A stretch of 64,000 bases of DNA from a phage: the NCBI GenBank assembly GCA_024686575.1, contig GCA_024686575.1_4863.1. One strand, given 5' to 3'. Below, one piece after another: positions 7,206 to 64,000 of this stretch (its first letter is position 1; every line of letters begins with the position of its first letter). Both the position numbers and the translations under genes were made by a program. The notes beneath the pieces were generated by a model. It made no database searches and was not told where the DNA came from. It saw only the letters and a list, made by a program, of their open reading frames with translations.

Positions 7206-9946
7206 TGGAAGATATTAGTAAATTAACGGGCGACCCCGCGGTAGCTGCCATACTGCGTAAGTCCACGAGCCCGTCGGCTCAGCAGCAACGCGGTAAGCGT
7301 GAAGATGGCGGTGTTACACCAACCCGTACAGAACTCACAGGTATCGCGAGTAGCCGCATTCGCACCGTTAAAAATGCCGAACGTATCTTTGATGCGCTCC
7401 CTGAGTTAGAGGTCATTGTTACCATCGCGACCTCCTCGCTCCTGTCCACAAAAGATTTGATTAACACCACGCTGATTTACGACAACGTGGCGGATATCCC
7501 GATCGACCTGCGTCAACAGTTGTTAGAACCCGTGCGTGATTTCCATGACCACACGCGCCAGTTGCCCAACAAACTGTATCAGTGGATTTACGATGCACTG
7601 AAATCCAAAGGTGCGAGCCCAGTGTTGCTGATTTCAGATACCGGATTCGATGAACTCTTCGGCTTAAAGCCGTCTGTTGCAACCGAATCACTGCGCCGGA
7701 GCCAATCTGACTTCTTTGAACGTCAGTTGGGTATTCTAGGCAAGATTGGCGGTGAGAACAAACCGAAGGTTGGTGTAGAAAGTATTCTGGGCCGTGCACG
7801 TGGCGCTGACAAGCCCACCAAGCCACAAACCATTAAACTTAACTTTGCATCAGCCCCTAACAGTCCGTTTAAAGCAGACGGTATGTTAGCTTCCCTGGAT
7901 ATCGTTATCACCGACAACCCGCGTATTACCCTGTTACCAGAGGCTTATCGCCGTGTGGCACAGGAGAATGCTCGTACCGGCCTGTTCGGGCAGTTAGAGC
8001 AGTACGCATATGAACAACCTTCTACACCGACAGGTGCGTCAGCGTATAACGCTGACCAGTTCACTGACAGCGAACAAGAGAAGGCAAAACTCGGTTTAAT
8101 CAACATTGGCGACCTCAACGAAGCGTACCAGAAAACGCCTGAGCAAAAGCTTTACGGCGAAGTACCGAAGATGAGTTTCTCCGATGCTAACAAAATCGAA
8201 TACACGGAACGATTACTGCCAGCAGAGTCCACACTCCCGCTCGTTATCGGCGACGATGTTCGTAACCCCATAGGTTATCTGGCCATCGTTGACGAAATGG
8301 GTAACTTCATTAACTCGCGCTCCACACTTTACGGTGATGCGAACTTCATGAACTACCTGAACAACGACGGTATGGTGGATTCAACAATCAACCGTGCAAA
8401 TCTGGGGATGGGCAACACAACCCGAATCACACCAGACATTGCTAACCGCTTAACAGCGCGTTATGGTGAGATTGCTGAAGATCAGCTGACAAAAGCGTTG
8501 GGTGAGGCGTTGGGGGGTGCTGAGATTAGCATGACGGTAACCGAAACGTTCAGCCGTATCATGTTAGCGCGCCATCTGGCAAAACGTCATACGCAGGTTA
8601 TTTATATTCCTGCGGAAAACCTTTGCTACTTCGCCACGGACTTTGATGAAGATGGCATCGGTGTATCTATTACCGAACGTTCGTTCGTTATCTCTACTGT
8701 CCGTATGGCACTGTTGTTCGCTACCATGAACTCTGCGGTGTTAAACTCTGCGCGTCACATGCAGTACGACATTGAGTTGGCACCAGATGACATGAACGGT
8801 CAGAAAACAATTGACCAGTTGAAAACAGACATCATGAACTCCTATAACCGTCGTCAACCGATGTGGGGGGACATGAACGACACCTGGGCAATGACGACAA
8901 ACGCAGGTATTGCGTTCAACGTTATCGGTAACGACTACTACGGTAGTACCAAAGTGTCTGTGTCGGATACCACGCCGGATTATAAATATCCGGATAAGGA
9001 TTTCGACGAAGGTCTGTTACGTCGTACTTGTCACATCGCTGGCGTTGACCCTGACCTGGTAATGACCCCAGAGAACATCGAATTCGCTTCACAGATTTTC
9101 TCTAAATCGTTGCTGGTCACGCAACAAGTTGTTAAGAAGCAAGAGATTCTCTCTAAGCCACTGACACGTTATGTAGTCAATGGGATGTTGGCCTCCCCGT
9201 CGTTACAATCGGCGATGATTAAAATCATTGCAGAGTATATCAATGCTAACGGCAAAGGGATGACTACTGACCAGATTACGAAAAAGGTCTCTGAGTATCT
9301 GGCTGCCTTCATCAACGGTATGAAAGTAACCTTACCACCGCCAGACACCTCAGCAGCAGCCTCGCAGATGGAGTTGTTCGATAAACGTACTGAGTTCTTT
9401 GAGAAGCTGGCTGATCTGGTTGTAACGGATGACATTGCTGCGCAACTTCAGCAGGAAGGCATCTCGATGGACCCGAACGATCTGAAGACGATGATCAAAT
9501 CCTTCTATACGCGCAACTGGCTGCGTAAACAAGGCATTGAAACCGACTTCTTCGATCTGGTTTACGACGATAAATCTCGTCAAGACAACATTACCATGAT
9601 GACTGATGAAGCGATGGCTGCTTCGAAGACGCTGATTCAACTGGCGAAACGCTTTACAGGTCGTCTGGAAACGTTGGCGAAAAATGCTGACCTTGATCCT
9701 AATGATGCTTCCGGCGGATTCAGTGGTGGTTTTGATGCGGGCGGTGACACCGGTGGCGGTGAAGGAGATCTCGGTGGTGGGGGTGACGATGATTTAGACC
9801 TCGATCTCGATACGGATGACGGAACCGACGGGGATAGTACAGGGGAAACGACTGAGTCGACCGAAACCACGGATACAACCACCGAGGGAACGGAAGGCAC
9901 AGAAGACGAAGGGACTACCGACGACAACCCAGACAACGCCCTCTAA
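7205..9946 (+). CDS. hypothetical large protein with acidic Gly/Asp/Thr-rich C-terminal tail
   Basis: 913 aa ORF; GGAG Shine-Dalgarno 5 nt before ATG; C-terminus is low complexity (GGFSGGFDAGGDTGGGEGDLGGGGDDDLDLDLD...); strong terminator after stop. Confidence 0.75.
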   Translation: MEDISKLTGDPAVAAILRKSTSPSAQQQRGKREDGGVTPTRTELTGIASSRIRTVKNAERIFDALPELEVIVTIATSSLLSTKDLINTTLIYDNVADIPIDLRQQLLEPVRDFHDHTRQLPNKLYQWIYDALKSKGASPVLLISDTGFDELFGLKPSVATESLRRSQSDFFERQLGILGKIGGENKPKVGVESILGRARGADKPTKPQTIKLNFASAPNSPFKADGMLASLDIVITDNPRITLLPEAYRRVAQENARTGLFGQLEQYAYEQPSTPTGASAYNADQFTDSEQEKAKLGLINIGDLNEAYQKTPEQKLYGEVPKMSFSDANKIEYTERLLPAESTLPLVIGDDVRNPIGYLAIVDEMGNFINSRSTLYGDANFMNYLNNDGMVDSTINRANLGMGNTTRITPDIANRLTARYGEIAEDQLTKALGEALGGAEISMTVTETFSRIMLARHLAKRHTQVIYIPAENLCYFATDFDEDGIGVSITERSFVISTVRMALLFATMNSAVLNSARHMQYDIELAPDDMNGQKTIDQLKTDIMNSYNRRQPMWGDMNDTWAMTTNAGIAFNVIGNDYYGSTKVSVSDTTPDYKYPDKDFDEGLLRRTCHIAGVDPDLVMTPENIEFASQIFSKSLLVTQQVVKKQEILSKPLTRYVVNGMLASPSLQSAMIKIIAEYINANGKGMTTDQITKKVSEYLAAFINGMKVTLPPPDTSAAASQMELFDKRTEFFEKLADLVVTDDIAAQLQQEGISMDPNDLKTMIKSFYTRNWLRKQGIETDFFDLVYDDKSRQDNITMMTDEAMAASKTLIQLAKRFTGRLETLAKNADLDPNDASGGFSGGFDAGGDTGGGEGDLGGGGDDDLDLDLDTDDGTDGDSTGETTESTETTDTTTEGTEGTEDEGTTDDNPDNAL

Positions 9947-10013
9947 ACAAAAAAAAAGAAAAAGAAATAAGGTTTACCTCTCCCTTCGGGGAGAGGTACC
10001 TTTTCTTTTTTAA
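9947..10013. terminator. bidirectional rho-independent terminator
   Basis: Stem TACCTCTCCC/GGGAGAGGTA with TTCG loop, A-run upstream and T-run downstream; sits between convergent genes. Confidence 0.8.
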
Positions 10014-10312
10014 TCTTCTGTAGCAGCTTTAGGTTTATTAACCAGTTCGTCGAGCATGATACCAATCGCCAGAGGGTCGTTCTGGAAAGGTTCTAGCTTT
10101 TCCAATACCTTTGTATCCTTTGCTGCTTTTAACGCCTTCAGGAGGCCTTTACGGGCGTTATAGAAGATTTGCCAGCGACGCCCATGACTGATCGCGGTTT
10201 TGGCTTTGTGGAAGTCGGCTAAGAAAGCTTCAGTCGCTTTGTTTTCAGGTAACTCAAAGCGAAAACGCACACTACGCTCAAAATCCATGTTGACAACAAT
10301 GAACTTTACCAT
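10010..10312 (-). CDS. hypothetical protein
   Basis: 100 aa ORF; GAGG upstream of ATG; perfect palindrome TATAGAG-CTA-CTCTATA lies just upstream. Confidence 0.6.
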   Translation of the reverse strand: MVKFIVVNMDFERSVRFRFELPENKATEAFLADFHKAKTAISHGRRWQIFYNARKGLLKALKAAKDTKVLEKLEPFQNDPLAIGIMLDELVNKPKAATED

Positions 10313-10325
10313 GCTCGAACCTCAT

Positions 10326-10342
10326 TATAGAGCTACTCTATA
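10326..10342. repeat. perfect palindrome TATAGAG-CTA-CTCTATA
   Basis: 17-bp element with 7-bp perfect inverted arms in the 34-bp spacer between two small minus-strand genes; operator-like. Confidence 0.5.
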
Positions 10343-10346
10343 ATAA

Positions 10347-10613
10347 TTACGCCAGTGTAATGTGGTACTTATCAATGTCAGGGAATCGCTCTTTGATCAT
10401 CCCGCAGAACATATCTAGCACCGGATCAGTTTTTGCGGCCTTCTCCATCTCAGGAAAAATACTACGCAGTGGCACGCCAGGGTACAGTCCTGCCGTTTTC
10501 TTAAGCTCTTCTTTATACTTTGCCAACAGAGATTTAACCCCAGCTGTCTTCGGGAAGCCGCACCCTGCGACCCCATCGTTTTCAAAATAGATTACTGCTT
10601 CAACACTAGACAT
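10347..10613 (-). CDS. hypothetical small protein
   Basis: Track ORF 10347-10631; the second in-frame ATG (at 10613) has an AAGGAG Shine-Dalgarno 8 nt upstream, so the shorter 88 aa form is preferred. Confidence 0.55.
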   Translation of the reverse strand: MSSVEAVIYFENDGVAGCGFPKTAGVKSLLAKYKEELKKTAGLYPGVPLRSIFPEMEKAAKTDPVLDMFCGMIKERFPDIDKYHITLA

Positions 10614-10631
10614 TTTAATACTCCTTTTCAT

Positions 10632-10671
10632 GATAAAATAAAAAATAATAATAGGAGACCCGAAGGTCTCC
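10632..10671 (-). terminator. rho-independent terminator
   Basis: Hairpin GGAGACC-CGAA-GGTCTCC followed on minus strand by a long T/A-rich run. Confidence 0.65.
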
Positions 10672-10678
10672 GTATTAC

Positions 10679-12355
10679 TTAGTACAACACTGGTGCAGTT
10701 TTCTCACCATTGCTCAGAAGCAAGTAAGTGTGCTGCGGCAGCTGCATCAATACAATTGCATGTGGCACGTTTTCCTGTACTGCTTCGTAGATAGACACAA
10801 CCGGGTCTGCGGTATTGCCCAGAGACGCTACCGTAACTACGTCGTGTTTATCAACAGAATGGTACATGCCTGGAATCACGATGGTGAACTGGCTCTGAAT
10901 CAGATTAACCACCTTGCCAGAATCGCTCAGCTTGATAGTCAGTTTGCGCAGAGAGTTTGCTACCATCAGGAACAGGTCACGGAACCAGTCTTCATATTCA
11001 CTTACGCCGTTGTCGCCAGCGGTTGCTGTGAACAGATCTTTTACGAAGAAATCAATATCGCTGATTTTCCGTTCGAAATCGATAGCTTTGAACTTCGGCA
11101 CATCTTTACCACGCTTAGTGCCCAGCGACAGCGCGTTGTGTACCAGGAAAGTGATATTCGCCAGGTACGCATTAGCAAAGCGAGAAATTTCACTGATAAC
11201 CACTTCTGCTTCGCTGCTGTTCGCAATCGCATATTCGTGCAGTTCTTTCGTGTTCTTACGCAGTTCATCGATCGTGCGTTTCACCTTAGCCATGATAGTT
11301 TCAACATCTTCTACCAACGCCAAGTTGTCGAGATCGGATTTCAGTGCGTCGTGCTTAGCAACGAATTGTTTCATGCGTTCGCACATGTCAGTGTTAACAC
11401 CGACCAGATACGCGCGATAGCTATCCCGTGCACGCACAATCAGGTCAGCCCCGTCGTAGAAAACAACCTCTTCATTACCGTTAAAGATATCTTGCAACGG
11501 TGTAGCCCAATCACGCGTTTCCGCGTAAACAGATTGCTTAATGCGACTGTTAGCTTCCTTCGCTGGAATCGACATTTTAAGCTCGGGGGTTTTCAGCTCG
11601 TGAAGTGCGTAGTCTTCCATCAAATCAATCTCCTGCAGAATGTTGTTAATTGGGCCATTGGTAGTGTCCTTCTCGGTTTCTTCTGTTGCGCCGAGTGGGG
11701 AAAGCACTGGGTTATTAACTGTAGCATTAGACACCGGCATTGGTTGTACAGGCACCTGTGCTGGTTCAGGCTGGGGCTGTTGTGCTGTGGCTGGGACTAC
11801 TTGCGCCGGTTGTGGGTTCAGGATAGGATCACTAACCAGGTTAAGACCTGCACCGCCAGCAATCACGGTTAGTGCCGCATCCGTGTTACCAATCTTAACA
11901 CCACCGGATGGCGCAGAAGACATGGTCAAGCCATCAGTAACACGCACACCGCCAGAACTGTTACCGCCCAGTAACCCGCCTGCGTTGCTACCACCACCTA
12001 AACCACCACTGCCACCCAAACCGCCGGACTGCTGAGAACGAATTTCGGCAAGAATCTTACCGACTTGTTCCCAAGCATTAACCAGTTTGGTGTGACGATC
12101 GTCGTTATACGCGTCGCCCGCGTTATGCACCTGCTGATAGGCAGCTGCTTTATACGCGTCGACCGCATATGCGATAACCTGTGCTTCACTACCCCCTTTG
12201 GATGCTGCCCATGCCGCAACATACGTCGCAATCTTTAACGCCTGATCTGGCGGAATGCTACGACTACGCATCACGTTATTCAACTGCGACAGTACCGCGT
12301 CCTGATCGAGGTGTTTAACGATGACGTTTTTGATTTGTTCAACAGTAATGCTCAT
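10679..12355 (-). CDS. hypothetical protein with central Gly-rich and Pro/Gln-rich linker
   Basis: 558 aa; AAGGAG Shine-Dalgarno; internal low-complexity stretch GGLGGSGGLGGGSNAGGLLGG followed by PQPAQVVPATAQQPQPEPAQVPVQP; terminator downstream. Confidence 0.7.
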   Translation of the reverse strand: MSITVEQIKNVIVKHLDQDAVLSQLNNVMRSRSIPPDQALKIATYVAAWAASKGGSEAQVIAYAVDAYKAAAYQQVHNAGDAYNDDRHTKLVNAWEQVGKILAEIRSQQSGGLGGSGGLGGGSNAGGLLGGNSSGGVRVTDGLTMSSAPSGGVKIGNTDAALTVIAGGAGLNLVSDPILNPQPAQVVPATAQQPQPEPAQVPVQPMPVSNATVNNPVLSPLGATEETEKDTTNGPINNILQEIDLMEDYALHELKTPELKMSIPAKEANSRIKQSVYAETRDWATPLQDIFNGNEEVVFYDGADLIVRARDSYRAYLVGVNTDMCERMKQFVAKHDALKSDLDNLALVEDVETIMAKVKRTIDELRKNTKELHEYAIANSSEAEVVISEISRFANAYLANITFLVHNALSLGTKRGKDVPKFKAIDFERKISDIDFFVKDLFTATAGDNGVSEYEDWFRDLFLMVANSLRKLTIKLSDSGKVVNLIQSQFTIVIPGMYHSVDKHDVVTVASLGNTADPVVSIYEAVQENVPHAIVLMQLPQHTYLLLSNGEKTAPVLY

Positions 12356-12386
12356 TGTAAATAATACTCCTTAAGAGATGTAATAA

Positions 12387-14165
12387 TTAGCGGCCGATTT
12401 TAGCAATGTCTTCTTCGGTCGGTCTGATGTACGGGTCCAGTTTAGGATTCCGCATCATTACCAAACTTGGGTTGGTCTTCATGTACGGGTTGAGGATGTT
12501 TGCCTTAAACGGTGCCGACTTAGGAATATAGTAGACGTTACCGCATTCCAGATGCGACGCGGATGCGTGCTTAGTACGGTCGTTCAAGTTAACGGTCTTG
12601 CCTCCTTTCTTCGAACGCTTAGCATCGGTTTCGGTTTGACCGATGGCGTGCGTAGACACTGCCAATACCATTGATTCTGTAGAGGCATTGAAGAAACTGA
12701 TACCGCCGTTGCTCGTAATGGTGCGCATCACCAGATTGAGCACGATCTGTTTGTTCAGTGCGTCTCGAATAGACTTCGCCGCTGTCTCTGGAGTCCGATG
12801 TTCCAACTGCCCCAGCTTCCAACGTATTTTCGAGATCGTTGTGGTAAAGCCACGTTGACCCAACAGTAGGTAATCGGTTACCGTGAGACGTTTTCCGTAC
12901 ATAGACGGAATATCATCTTGCTTGGTAAGTCGAGTGCGTACCATCAGCTGCGTGGTATACCAGAGGAAATCAAACATATCCAAATCATCAGGGATGGACG
13001 GATCGTTTGCCATCAGCTCACCACGGAAGGTGCTGTTGACATAGCGTTCACATTCCTGGAAGTGGCTGTCCATACTGCGACTCAGTTCGATATCCGAAGG
13101 CTTCAGTCCGCGAATACTGCGGCCCAACACTTCACGCCAAGACGCTGCAGAGTTGAGGTTTGCAATATCTTCGTCCATTGCCATTTCATTAATCTGTGTA
13201 AACAGCCCCGGTAATGTTGGCGCACGACCGTTCTTACTGTTCTGTTTACCTGCGTAGTAGTGCGCTGCTTTGAAGAATGCGGCAGTCGCTACCAGCAACA
13301 GATGTTCGTTTTGATCCCAACGCCCTGCATCGGTGTTAGGCATATCTTCACGTTTAACCAACAGCACGTACTGGATGGTCTTCGCGAGTTGTGGCTCACC
13401 GGATTGAATCACCACATACTTCGTTAAGTCCACATCACGTACTTTAATCGCTGGCCAAATCGCCACATCAACGCCCGCATAACGCTTCACGGCTTGTTTA
13501 AAGCCATAACGCCCAAAGAGCCAATACATCAGTGGCTTCTCATCTGTGTCGTGTCCAATCTGTCCAGTGGAGACAAACAGATTCGATGTACCCGGCAAGA
13601 ACAGCTGCTCAGGGCGACCATTCACCAGAATCTTCGTTGGTTTCTTACAGAACTTGATAGACACCTTGCGAGTGAAGTCAAAGTTAATAAAGATACCGCC
13701 GTGCTCACGACATATACCAGGTTGATGGATTACAGGTGCTACGTGGTACGTTGTACCATAGTAGTTCATTAAGCCGCCACGACGAATAAACGGCAGGCTC
13801 ATTGGTCGTTGCACCGGGCGAGGATCACCTGGAACTCGGAACGAGGCCATTACCATATACGTGTCAGTGGATGAGATGTTAATAATTGACCGGCCACGAT
13901 TATTTCGTGAATTGTTATCCGACTTCGATAACTTAAAGATAAAAGCTTCAAACGGCGACATTTGGCGACAACCTAATACCGTTAACCCTTCTGGTAATTT
14001 CGGGTTATCGATTTCATCATACGTCAACTCACGACGTAGAATGGTTGCCACACGATCATGTATCCCATCTTTAGCTTGTGTGTACCCAACTCCTTCTGCA
14101 ATTGCACGATTAAAAGGCACTATTTCGCCTGCCTCTTTAATCTTCCTAATCGCATCTTTAAACAC
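12387..14165 (-). CDS. hypothetical protein
   Basis: 592 aa ORF; no recognisable motif by eye. Confidence 0.7.
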   Translation of the reverse strand: MFKDAIRKIKEAGEIVPFNRAIAEGVGYTQAKDGIHDRVATILRRELTYDEIDNPKLPEGLTVLGCRQMSPFEAFIFKLSKSDNNSRNNRGRSIINISSTDTYMVMASFRVPGDPRPVQRPMSLPFIRRGGLMNYYGTTYHVAPVIHQPGICREHGGIFINFDFTRKVSIKFCKKPTKILVNGRPEQLFLPGTSNLFVSTGQIGHDTDEKPLMYWLFGRYGFKQAVKRYAGVDVAIWPAIKVRDVDLTKYVVIQSGEPQLAKTIQYVLLVKREDMPNTDAGRWDQNEHLLLVATAAFFKAAHYYAGKQNSKNGRAPTLPGLFTQINEMAMDEDIANLNSAASWREVLGRSIRGLKPSDIELSRSMDSHFQECERYVNSTFRGELMANDPSIPDDLDMFDFLWYTTQLMVRTRLTKQDDIPSMYGKRLTVTDYLLLGQRGFTTTISKIRWKLGQLEHRTPETAAKSIRDALNKQIVLNLVMRTITSNGGISFFNASTESMVLAVSTHAIGQTETDAKRSKKGGKTVNLNDRTKHASASHLECGNVYYIPKSAPFKANILNPYMKTNPSLVMMRNPKLDPYIRPTEEDIAKIGR

Positions 14166-15220: not shown

Positions 15221-15235
15221 AGATAATATCTATCT
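15221..15235 (-). promoter_or_regulatory. conserved motif 2 (plus AGATAATATCTATCT; inverted repeat AGATA-N5-TATCT)
   Basis: Exact 15-mer present four times in the window; here about 45 nt upstream of the ATG at 15181. Confidence 0.5.
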
Positions 15236-15286
15236 CAGATTACTTTGGGCACGGGTTCATACCCAGTGCCCGTAACGTAAAAAACT

Positions 15287-16025: not shown

Positions 16026-16040
16026 AGATAATATCTATCT
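16026..16040 (-). promoter_or_regulatory. conserved motif 2, copy downstream of the 766 aa gene terminator
   Basis: Exact 15-mer 41 nt upstream of the ATG at 15985, immediately after the terminator U-run. Confidence 0.5.
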
Positions 16041-16120: not shown

Positions 16121-18421
16121 TTAGCCGCCAGCGCCTTCACCGCCAGTACCTGGCTGGGTAGCACCGCCGCCAACATCACCAGCATTACCACCGTCAGTAC
16201 CGCCGGTACCGTTGGAAGTAGTAGTGACGTTGAACGCCAGTTTCTCTTCCACGAACTTGGTGATACCTTTAATCCAGATCAGACCAGTGATCGGGCAGTG
16301 GCAGATGTGCGCGTTACGAGGCTGTACTGCCAGCTCTTTGCTGGTAGCGCCGTTACGCTGGATGTTGATGTTGGTTACCATGATCGGAGACCAGAAGTGG
16401 TTACCCCAGTTCAGAACACAGTAAGAACCATCATCAGCGGTTGGAACTTTCAGAACCCACTGCAGGCGGCGAGTCCAGCTGCCGTCAGCTTCGTTCTTCA
16501 CACGCCAGCGGTCATCGTTGGTGGTGATAACTTCGTACTCGTAGCGATCGCCCAGCAGACGCTGGTCACCCTGAACCAGCAGCAGCATTGCAGCAGTCGG
16601 TTCGTCAGTTGCGATAACAACTTTCGGCAGTGCGTTCGGGTCCGCAGTCAGCAGGCGCAGAGCCGGCATGAAGCGAGAGTCCTGGATAGCACGAGTTACC
16701 TGGTCACCGATACGCTGTACCAGACCCTGACGGGCGTTGATGAGCGCATCTTTGGTATCCAGAGACTGGATCACTTTGTCCACTTCGTAGTCGCTTTCGC
16801 TGTACCACGGAGCAACCCAGTGACGGCCCAGGCCGCGGATAGCAGGTTTGTCCCACGGAGTGATCATGGACGCAGCTGCGTTCTTAACCGCTTCGGTGTA
16901 AGACAGAGTCTGAGTGATAGCCAGCATTTCGTTACGGATGTTAACCGCAGAAACGAGGTCGTCCAGACGTTCGGTGTCGTCGTATTCAACGCCAACCGGA
17001 GATTTGGTCATGATCGGAGAACCGTACTGCAGTTTGTAGTTCTCTTGTTCCCAAATCGGGTCGAGCAGAAGGCCCTGGGTTCTCCGGTTCTCGTTGGTAC
17101 GAGTACCGTCGAAGCGCCAGCCCAGCAGCTCCAGTTTCAGGTTGTCGATGATGACTTTGCCGGTGCCGCTTTCGATATCAACAGCAGTACCAGTTGCGTC
17201 GTACAGACCTTCGATTTCCAGAGACGGTGCAGTCACGTCAACACGACCAGAGAACTGACCATTGGTGAACAGAGACATGCTGATGTTCATGGAATAACGA
17301 ATGGTGTAATCGTTCTGTGCCAGAGCGGCCAGTGCCGGGATTTCAGCACCTTTCCAGTCCAGAGACTTGGCGTTCAGGGAGAACACAGTGCGACGGAACT
17401 GCAGGACCAGCTCACGGCCATCACCTTCAGGAGGACGCTGGAAGGTAGCGAACTGCATGTCGCGTACGTTCAGTTTGATCAGCGCACCATCTTTCGCTTC
17501 TTCGGCCGGCTTACGCACAGACAGCAGCAGGCTACCCAGCGCTGCACCCGGTGCGATTTCGTCGGTTTCATCGTAACCTTCCTGCACGATACCCGGATGG
17601 GCAGACAGCTGGAACAGGTTCAGACGACGCTCAGAGAAGCTCAGGTAGTTGGTCGGATACGCCGGCACACGACCCAGCTGAACGTTTTCGTTTTCGATGA
17701 TGTCTTCGGATACGAAGAACTTCGCGTTCTCACCGGTTTCCATCACGTAAGGTACGATACGGATAGCATCGTCCTGCAGGACTTTGTGGTTAGACAGCGC
17801 GTTATGCAGCGGCTGACGGTTGTCTTCAACCACGTCTTTGGTCAGCAGGGCGTTCAGGATACCACGAGTTACAGTAGTAACTTTGGTACGAACGGTGATC
17901 CCGACGTCGTTGGTGTCCACAGTGATGGTCGGGAACAGGGTTTCTGCAAACTTGGATTGAGTTTCCAGAGCACGCACGTTCAGCGTCCAGGTCAGACCCA
18001 GGTTTTTGTCCAGGTCTTTGTTGGTGTAGTATTCGGTTGCGACCAGCGGAGTTTTACCGTAGTCAGCAGCCAGGGATGCTGCACCAGAAATAGCGATCGG
18101 CATATAGCTGGCGTATTCCGGCTTCGCGCTCTCAGCAGCAACACGGGTCATGAAGTCATCTTCGTGACCGGCAGCAGCCAGAATCATCGCAGAAGCAACC
18201 TGAGCAGCGTGGCTCATGGTTTTGCCAGGGTTTACAGCTTCGTAGTGCTGCTGAGCAGTGTCACGCAGGTTGGTGAAGCCGGCAGCATTTTTACGTACAG
18301 ATTCGCCAACGGCTACGGTTTGCCATACGTCATTAGCGGAAGAGCCTGCCTTGGCAGCAGCGACCAGAGCATTGCCCTGCTGAACCAGCTGGTCCAGACT
18401 AGCGATACGGGTATCTTTCAT
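16121..18421 (-). CDS. highly expressed structural protein, candidate major capsid protein
   Basis: 766 aa; strong preference for GGT/CTG/CGT/AAC/ACC codons unlike most neighbours; strong terminator directly downstream; Gly-rich C-terminal tail. Capsid role is a guess from size and expression. Confidence 0.75.
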   Translation of the reverse strand: MKDTRIASLDQLVQQGNALVAAAKAGSSANDVWQTVAVGESVRKNAAGFTNLRDTAQQHYEAVNPGKTMSHAAQVASAMILAAAGHEDDFMTRVAAESAKPEYASYMPIAISGAASLAADYGKTPLVATEYYTNKDLDKNLGLTWTLNVRALETQSKFAETLFPTITVDTNDVGITVRTKVTTVTRGILNALLTKDVVEDNRQPLHNALSNHKVLQDDAIRIVPYVMETGENAKFFVSEDIIENENVQLGRVPAYPTNYLSFSERRLNLFQLSAHPGIVQEGYDETDEIAPGAALGSLLLSVRKPAEEAKDGALIKLNVRDMQFATFQRPPEGDGRELVLQFRRTVFSLNAKSLDWKGAEIPALAALAQNDYTIRYSMNISMSLFTNGQFSGRVDVTAPSLEIEGLYDATGTAVDIESGTGKVIIDNLKLELLGWRFDGTRTNENRRTQGLLLDPIWEQENYKLQYGSPIMTKSPVGVEYDDTERLDDLVSAVNIRNEMLAITQTLSYTEAVKNAAASMITPWDKPAIRGLGRHWVAPWYSESDYEVDKVIQSLDTKDALINARQGLVQRIGDQVTRAIQDSRFMPALRLLTADPNALPKVVIATDEPTAAMLLLVQGDQRLLGDRYEYEVITTNDDRWRVKNEADGSWTRRLQWVLKVPTADDGSYCVLNWGNHFWSPIMVTNINIQRNGATSKELAVQPRNAHICHCPITGLIWIKGITKFVEEKLAFNVTTTSNGTGGTDGGNAGDVGGGATQPGTGGEGAGG

Positions 18422-20851: not shown

Positions 20852-20890
20852 GCTCTCTCCTTCGGGAGAGAGCACCTTTTATTTTCTTTT
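20852..20890 (+). terminator. rho-independent terminator (plus strand)
   Basis: Stem GCTCTCTCC/GGAGAGAGC with TTCG loop followed by CCTTTTATTTTCTTTT. Confidence 0.65.
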
Positions 20891-20932
20891 CGGAAAATAA
20901 ATATAAAGCCCTCTTACCCGAAGGTAAGAGGG
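20880..20932 (-). terminator. rho-independent terminator (minus strand)
   Basis: Stem CCCTCTTACC/GGTAAGAGGG, UUCG loop in minus-strand RNA, T-rich run on minus strand; directly downstream of gene 20939-21799. Confidence 0.7.
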
Positions 20933-22791: not shown

Positions 22792-22842
22792 GGCAATACT
22801 CCTTTAGATTAATAGTCGATTGAGTTGATAGATTGTCTTCTA

Positions 22843-22868
22843 TCACCTAGGTAATATATATCTGAAAT
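22843..22868 (-). promoter_or_regulatory. conserved promoter-like motif 1 (minus-strand reading contains TATATATTACCTAGGTGA)
   Basis: 26-nt exact repeat TCACCTAGGTAATATATATCTGAAAT shared with 31344-31369; lies between a terminator and the first gene of a small-gene operon. Confidence 0.55.
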
Positions 22869-22984
22869 TATTTTTATTCAGAGTACACCCTCTATAACGC
22901 TCTCAAACGCGTTTTGAGAGCTTTTATCACTATAGAGGGCGTTCTACCGTTAGAGTGGCTTTAGAAGGTTGTGAGTGCGTTTAG
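22869..22984 (-). other. structured non-coding region with nested palindromes (regulatory element or small RNA candidate)
   Basis: CCCTCTATA...TATAGAGGG encloses the palindrome GCTCTCAAACGCGTTTTGAGAGC; followed by three TTAGAG-type repeats; sits between a terminator and promoter motif 1. Confidence 0.4.
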
Positions 22985-23025
22985 AGGGCTAAAATAAAGA
23001 GACCTGGTCTCACAAGGAGACCAGG
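22985..23025 (-). terminator. rho-independent terminator
   Basis: Stem CCTGGTCTC/GAGACCAGG followed on minus strand by TCTTTATTTTAG. Confidence 0.65.
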
Positions 23026-23032
23026 CACACAT

Positions 23033-23830: not shown

Positions 23831-23873
23831 TGCAATATTTTCCTTAAGGTTACTTACGGGTCATACTAGATGA

Positions 23874-25187
23874 CTAAGCTGTAAATTTTTCATCTTTGAG
23901 CCAAAGACTCAGTTGTGATTGGGTGTTATAGCGTCCTGATGCCATCGTTTGACCATCGACAGCGGACTGGAACACTTCACCCACCAACGTGCCGTAGCGG
24001 GTATAGACCCCATACTCGTTGGCAAAAACGTATTTTACTGGCATACCGGGATATAGGATGCCGTGCGTTGAACGGTTCCAGGTTGTTTGCACAATCGTAC
24101 CCAGACCCATCTCCAGTTTAGACCGCTGCGGTTTATCGGTATCACTAAAGTGTTTATCAGGATCGATTGGTGCGTTAACCACGCCGCCTGGATACGCAGC
24201 AGGGTCGGCCTGCGCCACAAACTTATCAGGTGTGGTCATACTGATGTCGCCAGGCGTAAATGAACTACTACGCCCATCCAACACACGTACAGACCCTACC
24301 CTGTAACCCGTACCGTGGTTAAGCGCGGCCTGGTCACGGTATTCCAAACTACTGGTGTCGCCGCCACAAATCAGATAGATAACATTACCCGCGATATCGG
24401 TGGTGCGGTCAATGTGAGCAGCCTGTTCACGAGGCAGATTATAGATGACCAGTTTAGGCTTCGTTGTGTTATTAAACTTCAACGAGTCCCAGGGCCGATA
24501 CAGATACCAGCGCTGCAAGTATTGGAAGACCCCAATACCTTTGCTGTAAACACCGTAATGGTTCTGCAGATAATCAAACACGCTTAAGAAGTCTTCGGAG
24601 TCCGGTATAACGATATCACGATATGCCTGCTGTTCTTCCTCGTCGTATTCAATTCCTTTCAACTGCCCCTCTGCAGCCACCCCGTCCGGCAACGTATCCG
24701 CCAGTATCGAGCGTGCCACTGTTAACCCATCGGTTTCGTGGTAGATACCGCCCACTTGACGGTTACGCAGGAACCACATCGACTCATCCATCAGCTCCAA
24801 TGTTACCAAAGCGATAGATTTCTCATCAGACTGACTCAAGAACATCGTCGGTGTTTCCGCGTTGTGGTCGCGGTTATTTATCACGATGCCGCGGTAGTTA
24901 AAGACCCCCGCGATTTTCTGTCCACGACGCAATAACAGCTTTACCTTCAAATCCCCTTCTGCGGACGATGTGATCATTCGCATGTGGCTGTAGGGTATAG
25001 CCAAGGTGAGATGTGTCAATAAACAGATATCGCGCGTAAAGTGACCCGTGTGGATGATAGACAGCATCTTCAACACCGTCACTGGGGCACCGTGCACCGT
25101 GAGGAATATCCCGTAGTCGATAGCCGGTAACCCCCGAGCATTAGCGATGTGACCGTTCGCCATCTGTTGTAACCGACCAAACGACAT
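23874..25187 (-). CDS. hypothetical protein
   Basis: 437 aa ORF in tightly packed minus-strand array 23033-28561. Confidence 0.7.
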   Translation of the reverse strand: MSFGRLQQMANGHIANARGLPAIDYGIFLTVHGAPVTVLKMLSIIHTGHFTRDICLLTHLTLAIPYSHMRMITSSAEGDLKVKLLLRRGQKIAGVFNYRGIVINNRDHNAETPTMFLSQSDEKSIALVTLELMDESMWFLRNRQVGGIYHETDGLTVARSILADTLPDGVAAEGQLKGIEYDEEEQQAYRDIVIPDSEDFLSVFDYLQNHYGVYSKGIGVFQYLQRWYLYRPWDSLKFNNTTKPKLVIYNLPREQAAHIDRTTDIAGNVIYLICGGDTSSLEYRDQAALNHGTGYRVGSVRVLDGRSSSFTPGDISMTTPDKFVAQADPAAYPGGVVNAPIDPDKHFSDTDKPQRSKLEMGLGTIVQTTWNRSTHGILYPGMPVKYVFANEYGVYTRYGTLVGEVFQSAVDGQTMASGRYNTQSQLSLWLKDEKFTA

Positions 25188-25726
25188 TAGCGACCTCCTC
25201 GGGCTCTATAAGCGTACTCAATACGTTTCATAATCGTATCATTAAAACGGTGGAGTTTAGACTCCAGGCGGACCTGCCCAAATAACGACTGAACACAGTC
25301 CGCCATCGTTGCCGTGGGTTTCTTGAAATACCCGTAGCGGTTAGCCACAGGAAACAGTTTCGAAGCCAGCACATTGAACTGACGCAACCCTTCGATAGGG
25401 ACTTCCCGGTAAATCAGCGTCGGGTTCTCCAGATAGTTCAGCCAGTCCGCAAGGTGTTCCATAATCCACCCGTACACTTTAATCCCGTCATGCGGGTCGT
25501 GTACATCTAACGCACCACCGGTCGCTAAATACTCAGCAGCTTCTGAGGGGTGCAGATAGATAGGCTTCATGTTCAGTAACAACGCTTGTCGTTTCTTCGG
25601 GTCTTCTGGCAAGAACAATCCGTGTTCCTGACTGGCGTAGGTTGTGATGGTTGCGTATTCCGGTACCCGGAAGAACACCCACGCTTTAAACAGCATAAAT
25701 GCTGCACTGCGCTTCTTCTCCGACAT
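25187..25726 (-). CDS. hypothetical protein
   Basis: 179 aa ORF; start/stop overlap with neighbours. Confidence 0.65.
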   Translation of the reverse strand: MSEKKRSAAFMLFKAWVFFRVPEYATITTYASQEHGLFLPEDPKKRQALLLNMKPIYLHPSEAAEYLATGGALDVHDPHDGIKVYGWIMEHLADWLNYLENPTLIYREVPIEGLRQFNVLASKLFPVANRYGYFKKPTATMADCVQSLFGQVRLESKLHRFNDTIMKRIEYAYRARGGR

Positions 25727-31343: not shown

Positions 31344-31369
31344 CTCACCTAGGTAATATATATCTGAAA
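31344..31369 (-). promoter_or_regulatory. conserved promoter-like motif 1, second copy
   Basis: Identical 26-mer, with partial conservation of the next 15 nt; located after the paralog-1 terminator and about 50 nt upstream of the ATG at 31302. Confidence 0.55.
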
Positions 31370-44580: not shown

Positions 44581-44650
44581 TTAGACGTTCCTTTTAGAAA
44601 ATACGTTACCCACAAATCAGTATAGCAGACACCATATTTGAGAGTAGACC

Positions 44651-46435
44651 ATGGAAATCAATACCTATTACGCACCCGAGGATGTCATCGCTAAAGAGTG
44701 CAAGCACGTCGCTTATGCGACGGACGAAGAAAAAGAAAATGACTTTGTCCTCATCAAAGAGGTCATCCATACTAAGGATGGCAGGCTTATCCCGCGCTTG
44801 GTAATGCGTGAGAATTTAAAGCGTCCGGTGTACGTTACCCGTGAAGAATATCGTAACCACCAGGAGAAAAAGGAGTTCGAAGAAAAAGGAAAATGTCAAG
44901 AACTCTGGACTACTGATGCGCAGATGGCGAAGACGTTGCAGATGGGTTTAGGTGCACGTTTCCCTGACCCGAAAAAGAACCTGAGGCGTGTTTGTACTAG
45001 CCCGTACGTTTATTGGGCCGACTTACCGATTACCAGCTGGATTAAACAGAAATACTTAAAGCGTTGGCCAAACAACATCAGTCCTAACCGTCTTTGTGTA
45101 TACGACGTAGAGACCAACGAAATGGACGGCACGAAGGAACCGTGGATCGTGTCATTTATCTTAGACGACGAAATCCATTTCTTTGGTGCTAAGAACTACA
45201 TGGACCGCATCGGTAAAAACGCGGAAGAAGTCATTCTCAAAAAAGCGCAGGAACTCTTAAGCAAAATCGAATTCGATGAGAAAGACAAAAAGACTGGCGA
45301 AAAGGTGACAAAGACCAAAGACATTATCAGTGGTTATAAAATCTTCACCTATACCTGCGCTACAGCAGGGCAGTGCATCGTCAGGATGTTCGAAGAAATT
45401 CATCCGCGTCTTCCTGATTTGCTGGTCGCATGGAACCACCAGTTCGATATTTCACGCATGTTAGAAACCTTGCAGAAAGAAGGCATCGATCCACTGGGCG
45501 TCTTTAACCATCCGGATGTGCCGGAGAAATACCGTCGTCTGTGGTTTAAAGAAGACCAGGCGAACAAAAAGACAGAATCCAAGTCACTCACCAAAGCACC
45601 GTCACAACAGTGGCACGTACTCTACTGTACTGCGTCTTTCTACTGTGTGGATGCCATGGTGTTATTCCGTTCGTTGCGTGTCCACGAAGGCCAACGTCCT
45701 TCGTACAAGTTATCTGCCATACTGTACACCGAACTCGGTTTACACAAACTCGACATTCCTGGCCTGCCGTATGAAGATAACCTGCAATGGCACATAAAAG
45801 CACAACGGGACTACCCTGCCGAATACGCCGTATACAACATGATGGATAACTTGTTAATTGTGTTGTTGGATAAGAAGACGAACGACTTGTCTTCAGCAAT
45901 ATCCATTCTGGCAGGTTTCTCGATGTACGATATCTTCCCGTCGCTACCAAAACGTATCTGTGTGGCCTTTACCTATTATCTGTATGACAAAGGATACGTC
46001 ATCGGCTCCGTAGGATCTGCAATGCGTAACGATTACGATGAAGAGGTTATCGGTACAGACGGTTGGATTGTTACCCTGACAGCATGTATGAATGCTGAGA
46101 ACGGTCTGAATAACATTCTGGAGGAGATTGACGAATATTACTCTGCGTTCCGTGGTCAAACTGCGGATGCGGACTTAACCCAGGCCTACCCTTCGGCCAC
46201 AAACATGATGAACCAGTCTCGTGAGACCACACTCATTGAACTGCTGTCCATCAATGGGGTTAGTGAAGAGATTCGACGTCGCACGGGCGTCAACTTAACT
46301 GCTGGGCGAGTTAATGCCATGGAAATAGCGACAGACTTCTTCTGCTTACCGGACAAAGACACTGTCCTGTCTACGTTCTTACGTAAGCAAGGGGAAGTAG
46401 TGACAGAGCCTATGGAGTACATCTGCGGGTTCTAA
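44651..46435 (+). CDS. family-B DNA polymerase N-terminal fragment (3-5 exonuclease domain plus motif A)
   Basis: 594 aa; Exo I-like VYDVETNE, Exo II-like VAWNHQFD, Exo III-like YCVDAM, and polymerase motif A-like DLTQAYPS; motifs B and C (KxxxNSxYG, YGDTDS) not found, so the rest of the polymerase is encoded elsewhere. Confidence 0.65.
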   Translation: MEINTYYAPEDVIAKECKHVAYATDEEKENDFVLIKEVIHTKDGRLIPRLVMRENLKRPVYVTREEYRNHQEKKEFEEKGKCQELWTTDAQMAKTLQMGLGARFPDPKKNLRRVCTSPYVYWADLPITSWIKQKYLKRWPNNISPNRLCVYDVETNEMDGTKEPWIVSFILDDEIHFFGAKNYMDRIGKNAEEVILKKAQELLSKIEFDEKDKKTGEKVTKTKDIISGYKIFTYTCATAGQCIVRMFEEIHPRLPDLLVAWNHQFDISRMLETLQKEGIDPLGVFNHPDVPEKYRRLWFKEDQANKKTESKSLTKAPSQQWHVLYCTASFYCVDAMVLFRSLRVHEGQRPSYKLSAILYTELGLHKLDIPGLPYEDNLQWHIKAQRDYPAEYAVYNMMDNLLIVLLDKKTNDLSSAISILAGFSMYDIFPSLPKRICVAFTYYLYDKGYVIGSVGSAMRNDYDEEVIGTDGWIVTLTACMNAENGLNNILEEIDEYYSAFRGQTADADLTQAYPSATNMMNQSRETTLIELLSINGVSEEIRRRTGVNLTAGRVNAMEIATDFFCLPDKDTVLSTFLRKQGEVVTEPMEYICGF

Positions 46436-59713: not shown

Positions 59714-59728
59714 AGATAATATCTATCT
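59714..59728. promoter_or_regulatory. conserved motif 2 in divergent intergenic region
   Basis: Exact 15-mer between the RNAP beta-like gene start (59683) and the plus gene start (59750); could serve either or both. Confidence 0.5.
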
Positions 59729-63203: not shown

Positions 63204-64000
63204 TTAAGAATTAAACCATTCAACTTCTTCTAACTTGCGACGTGCATTCAACACCATAAACTCCGCCAGGCTATTGTGCAGTGACAAGTGAGGTATATAG
63301 TTTGGCTGATCCGTCTCACACTTCAGCAGCGCAGCTGCTTCTGGTGTAGCCCTGAGATGGAACAGATACGGGTTGATGTGATCCTTGTGTAACAAGGTCA
63401 GTGATTCCCGTGGTGTAGATTGCGGTTCGAGATTACGCGGGTTGCGATACTCCTGAAGATAATATCTATCTAAATCTGCTTTGAGTTCAGATCGAATTGG
63501 GTCGGCTGCATAACCGGCAGACATCTCAGAACGCACCATATTGCAACTTAACAGTTGCGCAACGTCATACATTCCATAATTGAGATAAGTTGCCTGTGCT
63601 AACGCCATGCCGTAGCGAAACGCTTCTGGTCCACATTCGGTATACGTCTTATAATGCGCGCTACGATGGAGTGCTAATGCGACTAACCATTCGTGGAGCG
63701 TATAGACAGGACCGTCGTGTGTTGCCAGTTGCGAATCAATCAATAACTTAACATCTGCTGGAGCGGCATTATCCAGGCGCATTGTTTTCAAGAAAGAGCG
63801 GTATTCTTTAAATACGTACTCGGTACGGACGTATTCTTTCATCTGGGCAGGAGAACGTGCCTGCACCAAATCCATGGCGTTTATCTTACCCTTTTCGCCA
63901 TTGAATATCACACTTTCTGGATGCGCTTTTAACAGCACCGGCTGGTTAGAGATTTTGTTTGCAAAACCTGTTTCAATCTCTTGTTTAACCAGAAAATACA
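63204..64000 (-). CDS. hypothetical protein, 5-prime partial (continues beyond window end)
   Basis: Track ORF starts at a GTG at 63938, but the frame stays open to the window end; contains an internal copy of the AGATAGATATTATCT motif. Confidence 0.55.
   Translation of the reverse strand, partial: YFLVKQEIETGFANKISNQPVLLKAHPESVIFNGEKGKINAMDLVQARSPAQMKEYVRTEYVFKEYRSFLKTMRLDNAAPADVKLLIDSQLATHDGPVYTLHEWLVALALHRSAHYKTYTECGPEAFRYGMALAQATYLNYGMYDVAQLLSCNMVRSEMSAGYAADPIRSELKADLDRYYLQEYRNPRNLEPQSTPRESLTLLHKDHINPYLFHLRATPEAAALLKCETDQPNYIPHLSLHNSLAEFMVLNARRKLEEVEWFNS
63457..63471 (-). promoter_or_regulatory. conserved motif 2, intragenic copy
   Basis: Exact 15-mer inside the coding sequence of 63204-64000 (encodes DRYYL), about 270 nt upstream of the next gene start at 63191. 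Confidence 0.35.

Follow-up and report, generated by a model that had tools for sequence, protein, structure and literature searches.

A conserved palindrome beside a small gene of SPN3US-like jumbo phages: most likely a cis-regulatory element, and a candidate phiKZ-type start-site box

Lambdoid phage operators are palindromic repressor sites that overlap a promoter. Autogenous translational operators are also known in phages, such as the operator hairpin of T4 gene 43, the RegA sites and the coat-protein hairpin of MS2. The early promoters of phage N4 are DNA hairpins (5-7-bp stem, 3-nt loop), several of which lie at the genome end and are read by a single-subunit virion RNA polymerase. Promoter boxes normally recur in a genome. 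Seoulvirus, including SPN3US, comprises 240-kb jumbo phages related to phiKZ. SPN3US-like phages transcribe their genes with RNA polymerases of their own (PMC7598289). The phiKZ protein gp123, a beta-like subunit of the non-virion RNA polymerase, binds TATG at positions -3 to +1, on the non-template strand (PMC12809450). Middle promoters of phiKZ contain the motif AAanTTACc centred near -24, some of them together with TATG at the start, and each position of TATG matters (PMC4666361). No transcript 5'-end data or promoter map for SPN3US-like phages was found in the literature searched.

The window, i.e. the whole analysed stretch of 64,000 nucleotides, is assigned by sequence comparison to an SPN3US-like jumbo phage (Seoulvirus), with positions 9000-13000 sharing 98.6-98.7% identity with both Salmonella phage SPN3US and SEGD1. 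In the SPN3US numbering (PMC5694885), gp75 denotes the capsid protein and gp81 the portal, on which basis the two small ORFs that adjoin the palindrome are, by position, gp79 and gp80. The coordinates of all features are collected in the table below. The 592-aa ORF, located about 2 kb from the palindrome, matches PHIKZ123 (PDB 7ogp_E, E = 3e-20), and several RNA polymerase beta-like genes are present in the SPN3US annotation. The portal gene is on the + strand and converges with the 100-aa gene. For gp79, the mechanically called ORF has 94 aa (10347-10631); its likely start is the ATG at 10613, which is preceded by AAGGAG and gives 88 aa as in SPN3US. In homologue searches the gp80 family was confined to the SPN3US-like phage group. 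With a pI of 9.5, the gp80 protein is basic, and it contains Arg residues that are invariant; it gave no Pfam match, and its AlphaFold2 model (pLDDT 73) gave no match to a DNA- or RNA-binding fold.

Table 1. Features of the window, with the basis on which each was assigned. Where several positions are given, each is a separate copy.
Feature	Position	Strand	Basis
Bidirectional terminator-like hairpin, between 100-aa gene and portal gene	9975..9998	.	terminator scan, hairpin census
100-aa ORF (gp80 by position), adjoins portal gene	10010..10312	-	ORF list, SPN3US annotation
Box B CTATAATGAGG, inverted TATAG copy fused to Shine-Dalgarno GAGG (10320-10323)	10320..10330	-	kept in three clades
Perfect inverted repeat ATTATAGAG-CTA-CTCTATAAT, 9-bp arms, 3-nt centre	10324..10344	.	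sequence, pattern search, hairpin census, folding
Box A TTATTATAG, proposed start-site (initiator) box	10338..10346	-	conserved in all four clades
Upstream ORF (gp79 by position), 88 aa	10347..10613	-	ORF list, SPN3US annotation
Weak upstream box CATTACAC (TTACA, 13 nt, TATAG), in last codons of upstream ORF	10355..10362	-	pattern T[TC]AC[GA]-N13-15-TATAG
Intrinsic-terminator-like hairpin, 3' of 558-aa gene, upstream of the two small ORFs	10654..10671	-	terminator scan
558-aa ORF	between 592-aa ORF and small ORFs	-	ORF list
592-aa ORF, annotated just as 'polymerase'	12387-14165	-	phiKZ gp123 homologue
Early-like motif, upstream of genes	15222-15235, 16027-16040, 22850-22863, 31352-31365, 59715-59728, 63458-63471	-	motif survey
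TATGA examples	23860-23867, 24235-24242, 15256-15263	-	motif survey
Major capsid gene	16121-18421	-	ORF list/annotation
Second coding-strand copy, AAAACG-N13-TATAGAGGG, TATAGAG(GG)	22890..22915	-	motif comparison
Third copy, AAACG-N13-TATAGAG, ends 16 nt before start codon of 437-aa gene	25204..25228	-	motif comparison
AAAATACG-N15-TATAG, upstream of DNA-polymerase gene (44651-46435)	44598..44625	+	motif survey

The palindrome is located in a spacer (10313-10346) that separates two minus-strand ORFs, gp79 and the 100-aa ORF. A preliminary description of this DNA had reported a 17-bp palindrome with 7-bp perfect arms filling most of this spacer, and TATAGAGCTACTCTATA is indeed present at 10326-10342 (+ strand) with such arms; it is longer than had been noted, the perfect arms reaching 9 bp (10324-10344), and covers 21 of the 34 bases. 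The 17-bp pattern, allowing at most 2 mismatches, is expected 0.08 times per window. From dinucleotide shuffles, 0.93 perfect hairpins with a stem of at least 9 bp are expected per 64 kb, and the chance that any one 34-nt spacer contains such a hairpin is about 5e-4. Both estimates speak clearly against chance. In the window 18 were observed, most of the others being G+C-rich tetraloops with flanking A or T runs, i.e. terminator-like; the palindrome is A+T-rich (22% GC) and the only one of the 18 with a 3-nt loop. Folded as single-stranded DNA it reaches -5.0 kcal/mol (z = -5.5).

Two conventional assignments were rejected. An intrinsic terminator is out, as the stem is only 22% G+C with no T-run, and the terminator scan calls the neighbouring terminators and not the palindrome. 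A sigma-70 promoter of gp80 was also discarded, since transcription directed by the TATAAT of the right arm would begin within or beyond the Shine-Dalgarno, and no -35 element was called. As a side observation, the minus strand of 10320-10346 carries a stop in each of the three frames (TAG, TAG and TAA/TGA) immediately ahead of the gp80 ribosome-binding site, so that any ORF inserted upstream ends before gp80.

The preliminary description had taken the palindrome for an operator, a reading for which further copies in the genome would speak. The motif search it had proposed found one copy of the palindrome in the window and one in the complete SPN3US genome, and 10-11-mers drawn from it likewise occur a single time in each. 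A repeated operator or promoter motif was thus rejected, as TATAGAG-N3-CTCTATA, TTATTATAGAG and TATAGAGTAG all lack a second copy in the window and in the SPN3US genome, and the single copy counts against a multi-site operator. When viral contigs were scanned with the 17-mer, it was found in SPN3US, in phiEaH2 and in six unrelated chance contexts; a scan of viral contigs with a 14-mer gave random matches only.

For the analysis of conservation, regions upstream of gp80 were compared between 12 annotated phages, IMG/VR, metagenomes and assemblies. Four clades were distinguished: Seoulvirus (with pEa_SNUABM_29 and SPAsTU), Erskinevirus (Asesino, phiEaH2), Machinavirus with three subtypes, and an uncultured clade whose gp80 homologue has 50-55% protein identity; a scan of metagenomes yielded no further clade. 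The motif TTA(T/A)TATAG is invariant in all four, 24-35 nt before the start codon of the gp80 homologue, at protein identities of 44-78%. In three clades (Seoulvirus, Erskinevirus and the uncultured one) TATAG is followed, always at a distance of exactly 7 nt, by the second arm in the form CTATA(A/G)(T/C)GAGG, and the 7-nt centre between the two boxes differs between clades (AGTAGCT vs CCGCCCA). The arm containing box B is missing in Machinavirus, and conservation of the two arms is therefore asymmetric. When Seoulvirus is compared with pEa29 or Erskinevirus, identity is 85-94% in the 34-nt spacer and 72-76% in the gp80 coding DNA. This excess of conservation over the coding DNA bears out the earlier suggestion of a functional cis-element, here one under selection and linked to the 100-aa gene, and the palindrome is, judging from these comparisons, most likely a selected cis-regulatory element of one small conserved gene.

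The sequence context of TTA(T/A)TATAG varies, the motif being found after a stop codon, read as codons in two frames, or placed after a terminator. In Machina it is read as the codons Asp-Tyr-Tyr-Arg-stop and in pEa29 in another frame (…Ile-Glu-stop). Given this varying context and frame, the constraint acts on the nucleic acid, and the motif travels with gp80. Erskinevirus and the uncultured clade have a canonical terminator hairpin, complete with T-run, 9-15 nt upstream of the box A motif, so that gp80 needs a start signal of its own there.

The region just upstream of gp80 (window 10347-10631; L002, L004, L006 and L032) is a variable accessory-gene site, flanked on both sides by conserved sequence. 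In the window it is occupied by the 88-aa ORF, for which no function was predicted and which, as gp79, is not conserved among relatives. In pEa29 and SPAsTU the site holds an ORF of family PF21825 (crAss001_48-related). Machinavirus relatives are divided, some carrying a PF21825 ORF and others an unrelated 88-aa ORF. The uncultured clade has an 82-aa ORF there with a terminator behind it; in Erskinevirus the slot is empty, with a terminator alone. The PF21825 ORF is labelled 'Sequestin' in one source. This name is reportedly used in recent papers for proteins that sequester immune signals. The conserved element could be useful for annotation, and for engineering of the accessory-gene slot.

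Candidate promoter signals were surveyed de novo in the regions upstream of SPN3US genes, and three types were obtained. The first is an early-like motif, tttCAGATA[G/T]ATATTA[T/C]CTtaGGTGAg (the AGATAGATATTATCT family), with about 25 copies in SPN3US, which resembles the A+T-rich early (virion-polymerase) promoters of other jumbo phages. The palindrome was rejected as a member of this family, as it is not among the AGATANATATTA matches with at most 2 mismatches. The second type is TATGA, often in the form (A/G)GTATGA(C/A), which is 4-fold enriched in the 70 nt upstream of SPN3US start codons and is comparable to the late TATG of phiKZ. A few TATGA copies are located within small palindromes (GTCATctagtATGAC, TCATAgTATGA), with no general trend.

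The third type is a two-part element, consisting of a T-run, AC(G/A), 13-15 nt and then TATAG or TATGA. TATAG is 2.3-fold enriched upstream of SPN3US genes (p = 0.0016). Upstream of a DNA-polymerase gene, T-run-CAC(G/A)-N13-TTATAG (SPN3US 11492-11518, L014) is present in 21 of 24 relatives, the N13 being represented by 11 different spacers in which each column varies. A second polymerase gene is preceded by TTAC(G/A)-N14-15-TATAG in three lineages; the corresponding element of the window (44598-44625) is conserved in phiEaH2-like phages and in one 57%-identical relative. On these grounds T-run-(C)AC(G/A)-N13-15-TATAG is considered a candidate middle-promoter class of SPN3US-like phages. The bare pattern T[TC]AC[GA]-N13-15-TATAG occurs 8 times in the genome against 4.3 +/- 1.7 expected, a modest enrichment. 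The idea that hairpins are general to TATGA or TATAG promoters, as in N4, was rejected, since such sites upstream of genes fold no better than the same pentamers elsewhere (p = 0.69 and 0.72); palindromy is therefore specific to the gp80 site.

Box A of gp80 contains TTATAG exactly. TTATAG precedes the start codon by 25 nt at gp80 and by 25-31 nt at the polymerase gene (in the 21 relatives with TTATAG). A weak TTACA box stands 13 nt upstream of TATAG in the window, and close relatives have TTACG instead, by a synonymous change; in Erskinevirus, Machinavirus and the uncultured clade no AC(G/A) box is found at the proper distance.

The preliminary description had also stated that the arms of the palindrome are shared with a nested palindrome at about 22890-22938. 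CTCTATA/TATAGAG does occur there, at 22890-22896 and 22931-22937, so the shared heptamer stands, while its interpretation as conserved operator half-sites does not: in SPN3US the second arm of that palindrome is CTCTAAA, part of a run of CC(C/T)TCTAAA-like repeats. The count of the heptamer alone is not significant (7 observed vs 4.15 expected). Pure coincidence was nonetheless dropped as an explanation, because all three TATAGAG copies located upstream of genes are preceded by an AC(G/A) box and 13 nt. In SPN3US, AC is found 14-15 nt upstream of 4 of the 5 coding-strand copies of TATAGAG and of 2 of the 8 copies on the other strand. The feature that the two palindromes have in common is most likely the same promoter-type box, as far as motif comparison can tell.

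The reading considered as best supported, with roughly an even chance of being correct, is that the palindrome holds the start-site box of gp80's own promoter for a phage RNA polymerase, together with the leader. Assignment of the left arm as start-site box is based on the exact TTATAG, its distance from the gene, the TTACA/TTACG box with 13 nt, and the terminators upstream; promoter function, the polymerase used and the start site are what we infer from these sequence features. Box A (TTATTATAG) would be the start-site box of a phiKZ-like 'middle-type' promoter, in which about 13-15 free bases separate TATAG from a T-rich ...AC(G/A) box upstream. The non-virion multisubunit RNA polymerase of the phage would open the DNA at the palindrome, and the first transcribed base would be the A/G of TATAG or lie just behind it, at about 10339/10338 on the minus strand. 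The resulting leader of about 25 nt would carry the GAGG ribosome-binding site, and gp80 would be expressed independently of what is upstream, whether a swappable accessory ORF or a terminator.

This arrangement is close to that of phiKZ in several respects. The polymerase is of the same kind, a gp123 homologue being encoded in the window; a putative T/A-rich ...TTAC(G/A) box stands about 13-15 nt upstream of a TAT-purine box, much as in phiKZ middle promoters; and the box is short and close to the gene, with a putative leader of about 25-30 nt. The differences are that the box is TATAG here, extended to TTATTATAG, and TATG in phiKZ; that in this phage the upstream box is only weak, with no conservation across the other clades; and that box A is set inside a perfect palindrome, which has not been reported for phiKZ promoters and is not seen at the other TATAG/TATGA sites of SPN3US. 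What is proposed in concrete terms is thus a middle-type signal, T-run-AC(G/A)-N13-15-TATAG, beside an early-like family and a phiKZ-like TATGA. Should the inverted partner matter for polymerase loading or feedback, it would bear on how a phiKZ-type enzyme achieves specificity with a box of 4-5 bases; if not, the site amounts to an ordinary regulatory region of a single gene.

A promoter alone leaves two observations unexplained, i.e. that CTATA is kept at N7 in three clades and that the Machinavirus motif is found in a different hairpin with a seemingly co-varying outer stem. A further point against it is that the extended motif of 9-10 nt has one copy in the genome. Selection acts on the second arm (CTATAAT) in three of the four clades, and this arm could be part of an RNA hairpin, an operator or an antisense box. 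In a pair-count test on 10 distinct sequences, aligned from Seoulvirus, Erskinevirus and the uncultured clade, no compensatory change was found, 7 of 11 pairs were invariant, and the variation present breaks pairs. These counts favour a sequence-specific constraint on both boxes, with structure neither proven nor excluded by them. Most Machinavirus relatives have a different predicted hairpin, CACG-A-UUAUU-AUA-GAUAA-CGUG, the outer stem of which differs between relatives yet stays complementary (CCACG/CGUGG, UCACG/CGUGA, AGUG/UACU); the subclade of ChrisDB and pEa_SNUABM_4 is without a hairpin. The changes in the Machinavirus outer stem are suggestive of a role for hairpin formation.

An element acting at the RNA level is unlikely, but retains some weight. 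The hairpin, present on read-through transcripts, would end 2 nt before the Shine-Dalgarno and serve as a translational operator or as a stability or processing signal; the basic 100-aa protein would possibly bind it itself, as a means of autogenous control. In a context of 56 nt, the RNA is predicted to form an 11-bp stem of -14.2 kcal/mol (z = -2.6), and an equivalent stem (UUAUUAUAG/CUAUAGUGA) surrounds a different 7-nt loop in the uncultured clade. The complementarity kept in the alternative hairpin of Machinavirus points the same way, and the element has a single copy in the genome and accompanies gp80 throughout, as an autogenous operator would; the basic charge and invariant Arg residues of gp80 would also fit. 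The main alignment is nevertheless devoid of compensatory changes, the ChrisDB/pEa_SNUABM_4 subclade lacks a hairpin, and the strong terminators directly upstream in two clades would make read-through transcripts hardly abundant. Moreover, gp80 shows no recognisable RNA-binding fold, the palindrome has no Rfam match, and the exact match to a promoter-type TTATAG would have to be a coincidence. Compared with the known autogenous operators, the element is likewise a small hairpin by the ribosome-binding site of one gene, unique in its genome and inherited with the gene; in contrast to them, it shows no covariation in the main alignment, its putative ligand gp80 has no known RNA-binding fold, and it covers neither the Shine-Dalgarno nor the start codon.

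Somewhat less probable still is that the palindrome is an autoregulatory site where the small basic 100-aa protein would attach to its own leader or promoter, in RNA or DNA form, or a 'double start-site box' that helps the polymerase to open the DNA. If the latter were true, it would offer a handle on what, beyond four bases, specifies the promoters of phiKZ-type non-virion RNA polymerases.

A DNA operator, in which a dimeric phage protein would occupy TATAG and CTATA as half-sites and repress or time gp80, is improbable. The dyad symmetry is perfect, the half-sites are invariant at a fixed 7-nt spacing around a free centre in three clades, which is typical of half-sites contacted by a protein, and the site overlaps the putative start site, a classic operator position. 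In all of these features it is like the operators of lambdoid phages. It differs from them in being a single site in its genome, in that one half is dispensable in a whole genus, every Machinavirus relative having lost the right half-site and kept the left, and in that no cognate binder was found. Among the neighbouring small proteins, conservation, Pfam and fold comparison gave no cognate DNA-binding protein (gp79 is not conserved, and gp80 has no known DNA-binding fold), and the second arm of the heptamer-sharing palindrome is not conserved even in SPN3US. Of the operator proposed in the preliminary description, the selected cis-regulatory palindrome is retained, and repressor binding keeps a low probability; a promoter start-site box with leader has the better support.

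A hairpin promoter of the N4 type was rejected. Where the promoter is proposed, the palindrome forms a short stem with a loop of 3 nt, as N4 promoters do, but it is present in one copy, the loop is 7 nt in one clade, and the other candidate promoters are, by the folding comparison above, no more hairpin-prone than other TATGA or TATAG sites (p = 0.69, 0.72).

Two start-site boxes facing each other, with TTATAG on both strands, would give an antisense transcript across the upstream ORF, or competition between sense and antisense initiation. This is quite improbable. In those three clades which retain the palindrome, the opposite strand does read (T/C)TATAG, and in the window AC is present 16 nt upstream of the antisense copy; this antisense upstream 'box' is, however, nothing but the codons for the conserved Met-Val-Lys of gp80 read on the opposite strand, and it is absent in the other clades, and the other TTATAG elements are not palindromic. 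Lastly, a by-product with no specific function, either a chance A+T-rich palindrome or a recombination junction for cassette swapping, is very improbable, for although the upstream slot is variable between conserved flanks, the palindrome closes all three reading frames and the 17-mer arises by chance in six unrelated viral contigs, the chance expectation for the spacer is only about 5e-4, conservation is higher in the spacer than in the coding DNA beside it, and the motif is kept in Erskinevirus despite the empty slot.

Two other places in the window deserve mention. The 241-bp intergenic region 22792-23032 contains a terminator (23003-23025), several CC(C/T)TCTAAA-like repeats and a perfect 9-bp hairpin (22899-22921), as well as the AAAACG-N13-TATAGAGGG element followed by an early-like promoter. 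The same order, i.e. terminator, T-run-ACG box and early-like promoter, is found in a distant relative (L191), and the region could encode a small RNA or serve as a leader. Another perfect hairpin rich in A+T, TTTATTTTC-ttttcg-GAAAATAAA, occupies 20878-20901, wedged between G+C-rich terminator hairpins at 20852-20873 and 20909-20932.
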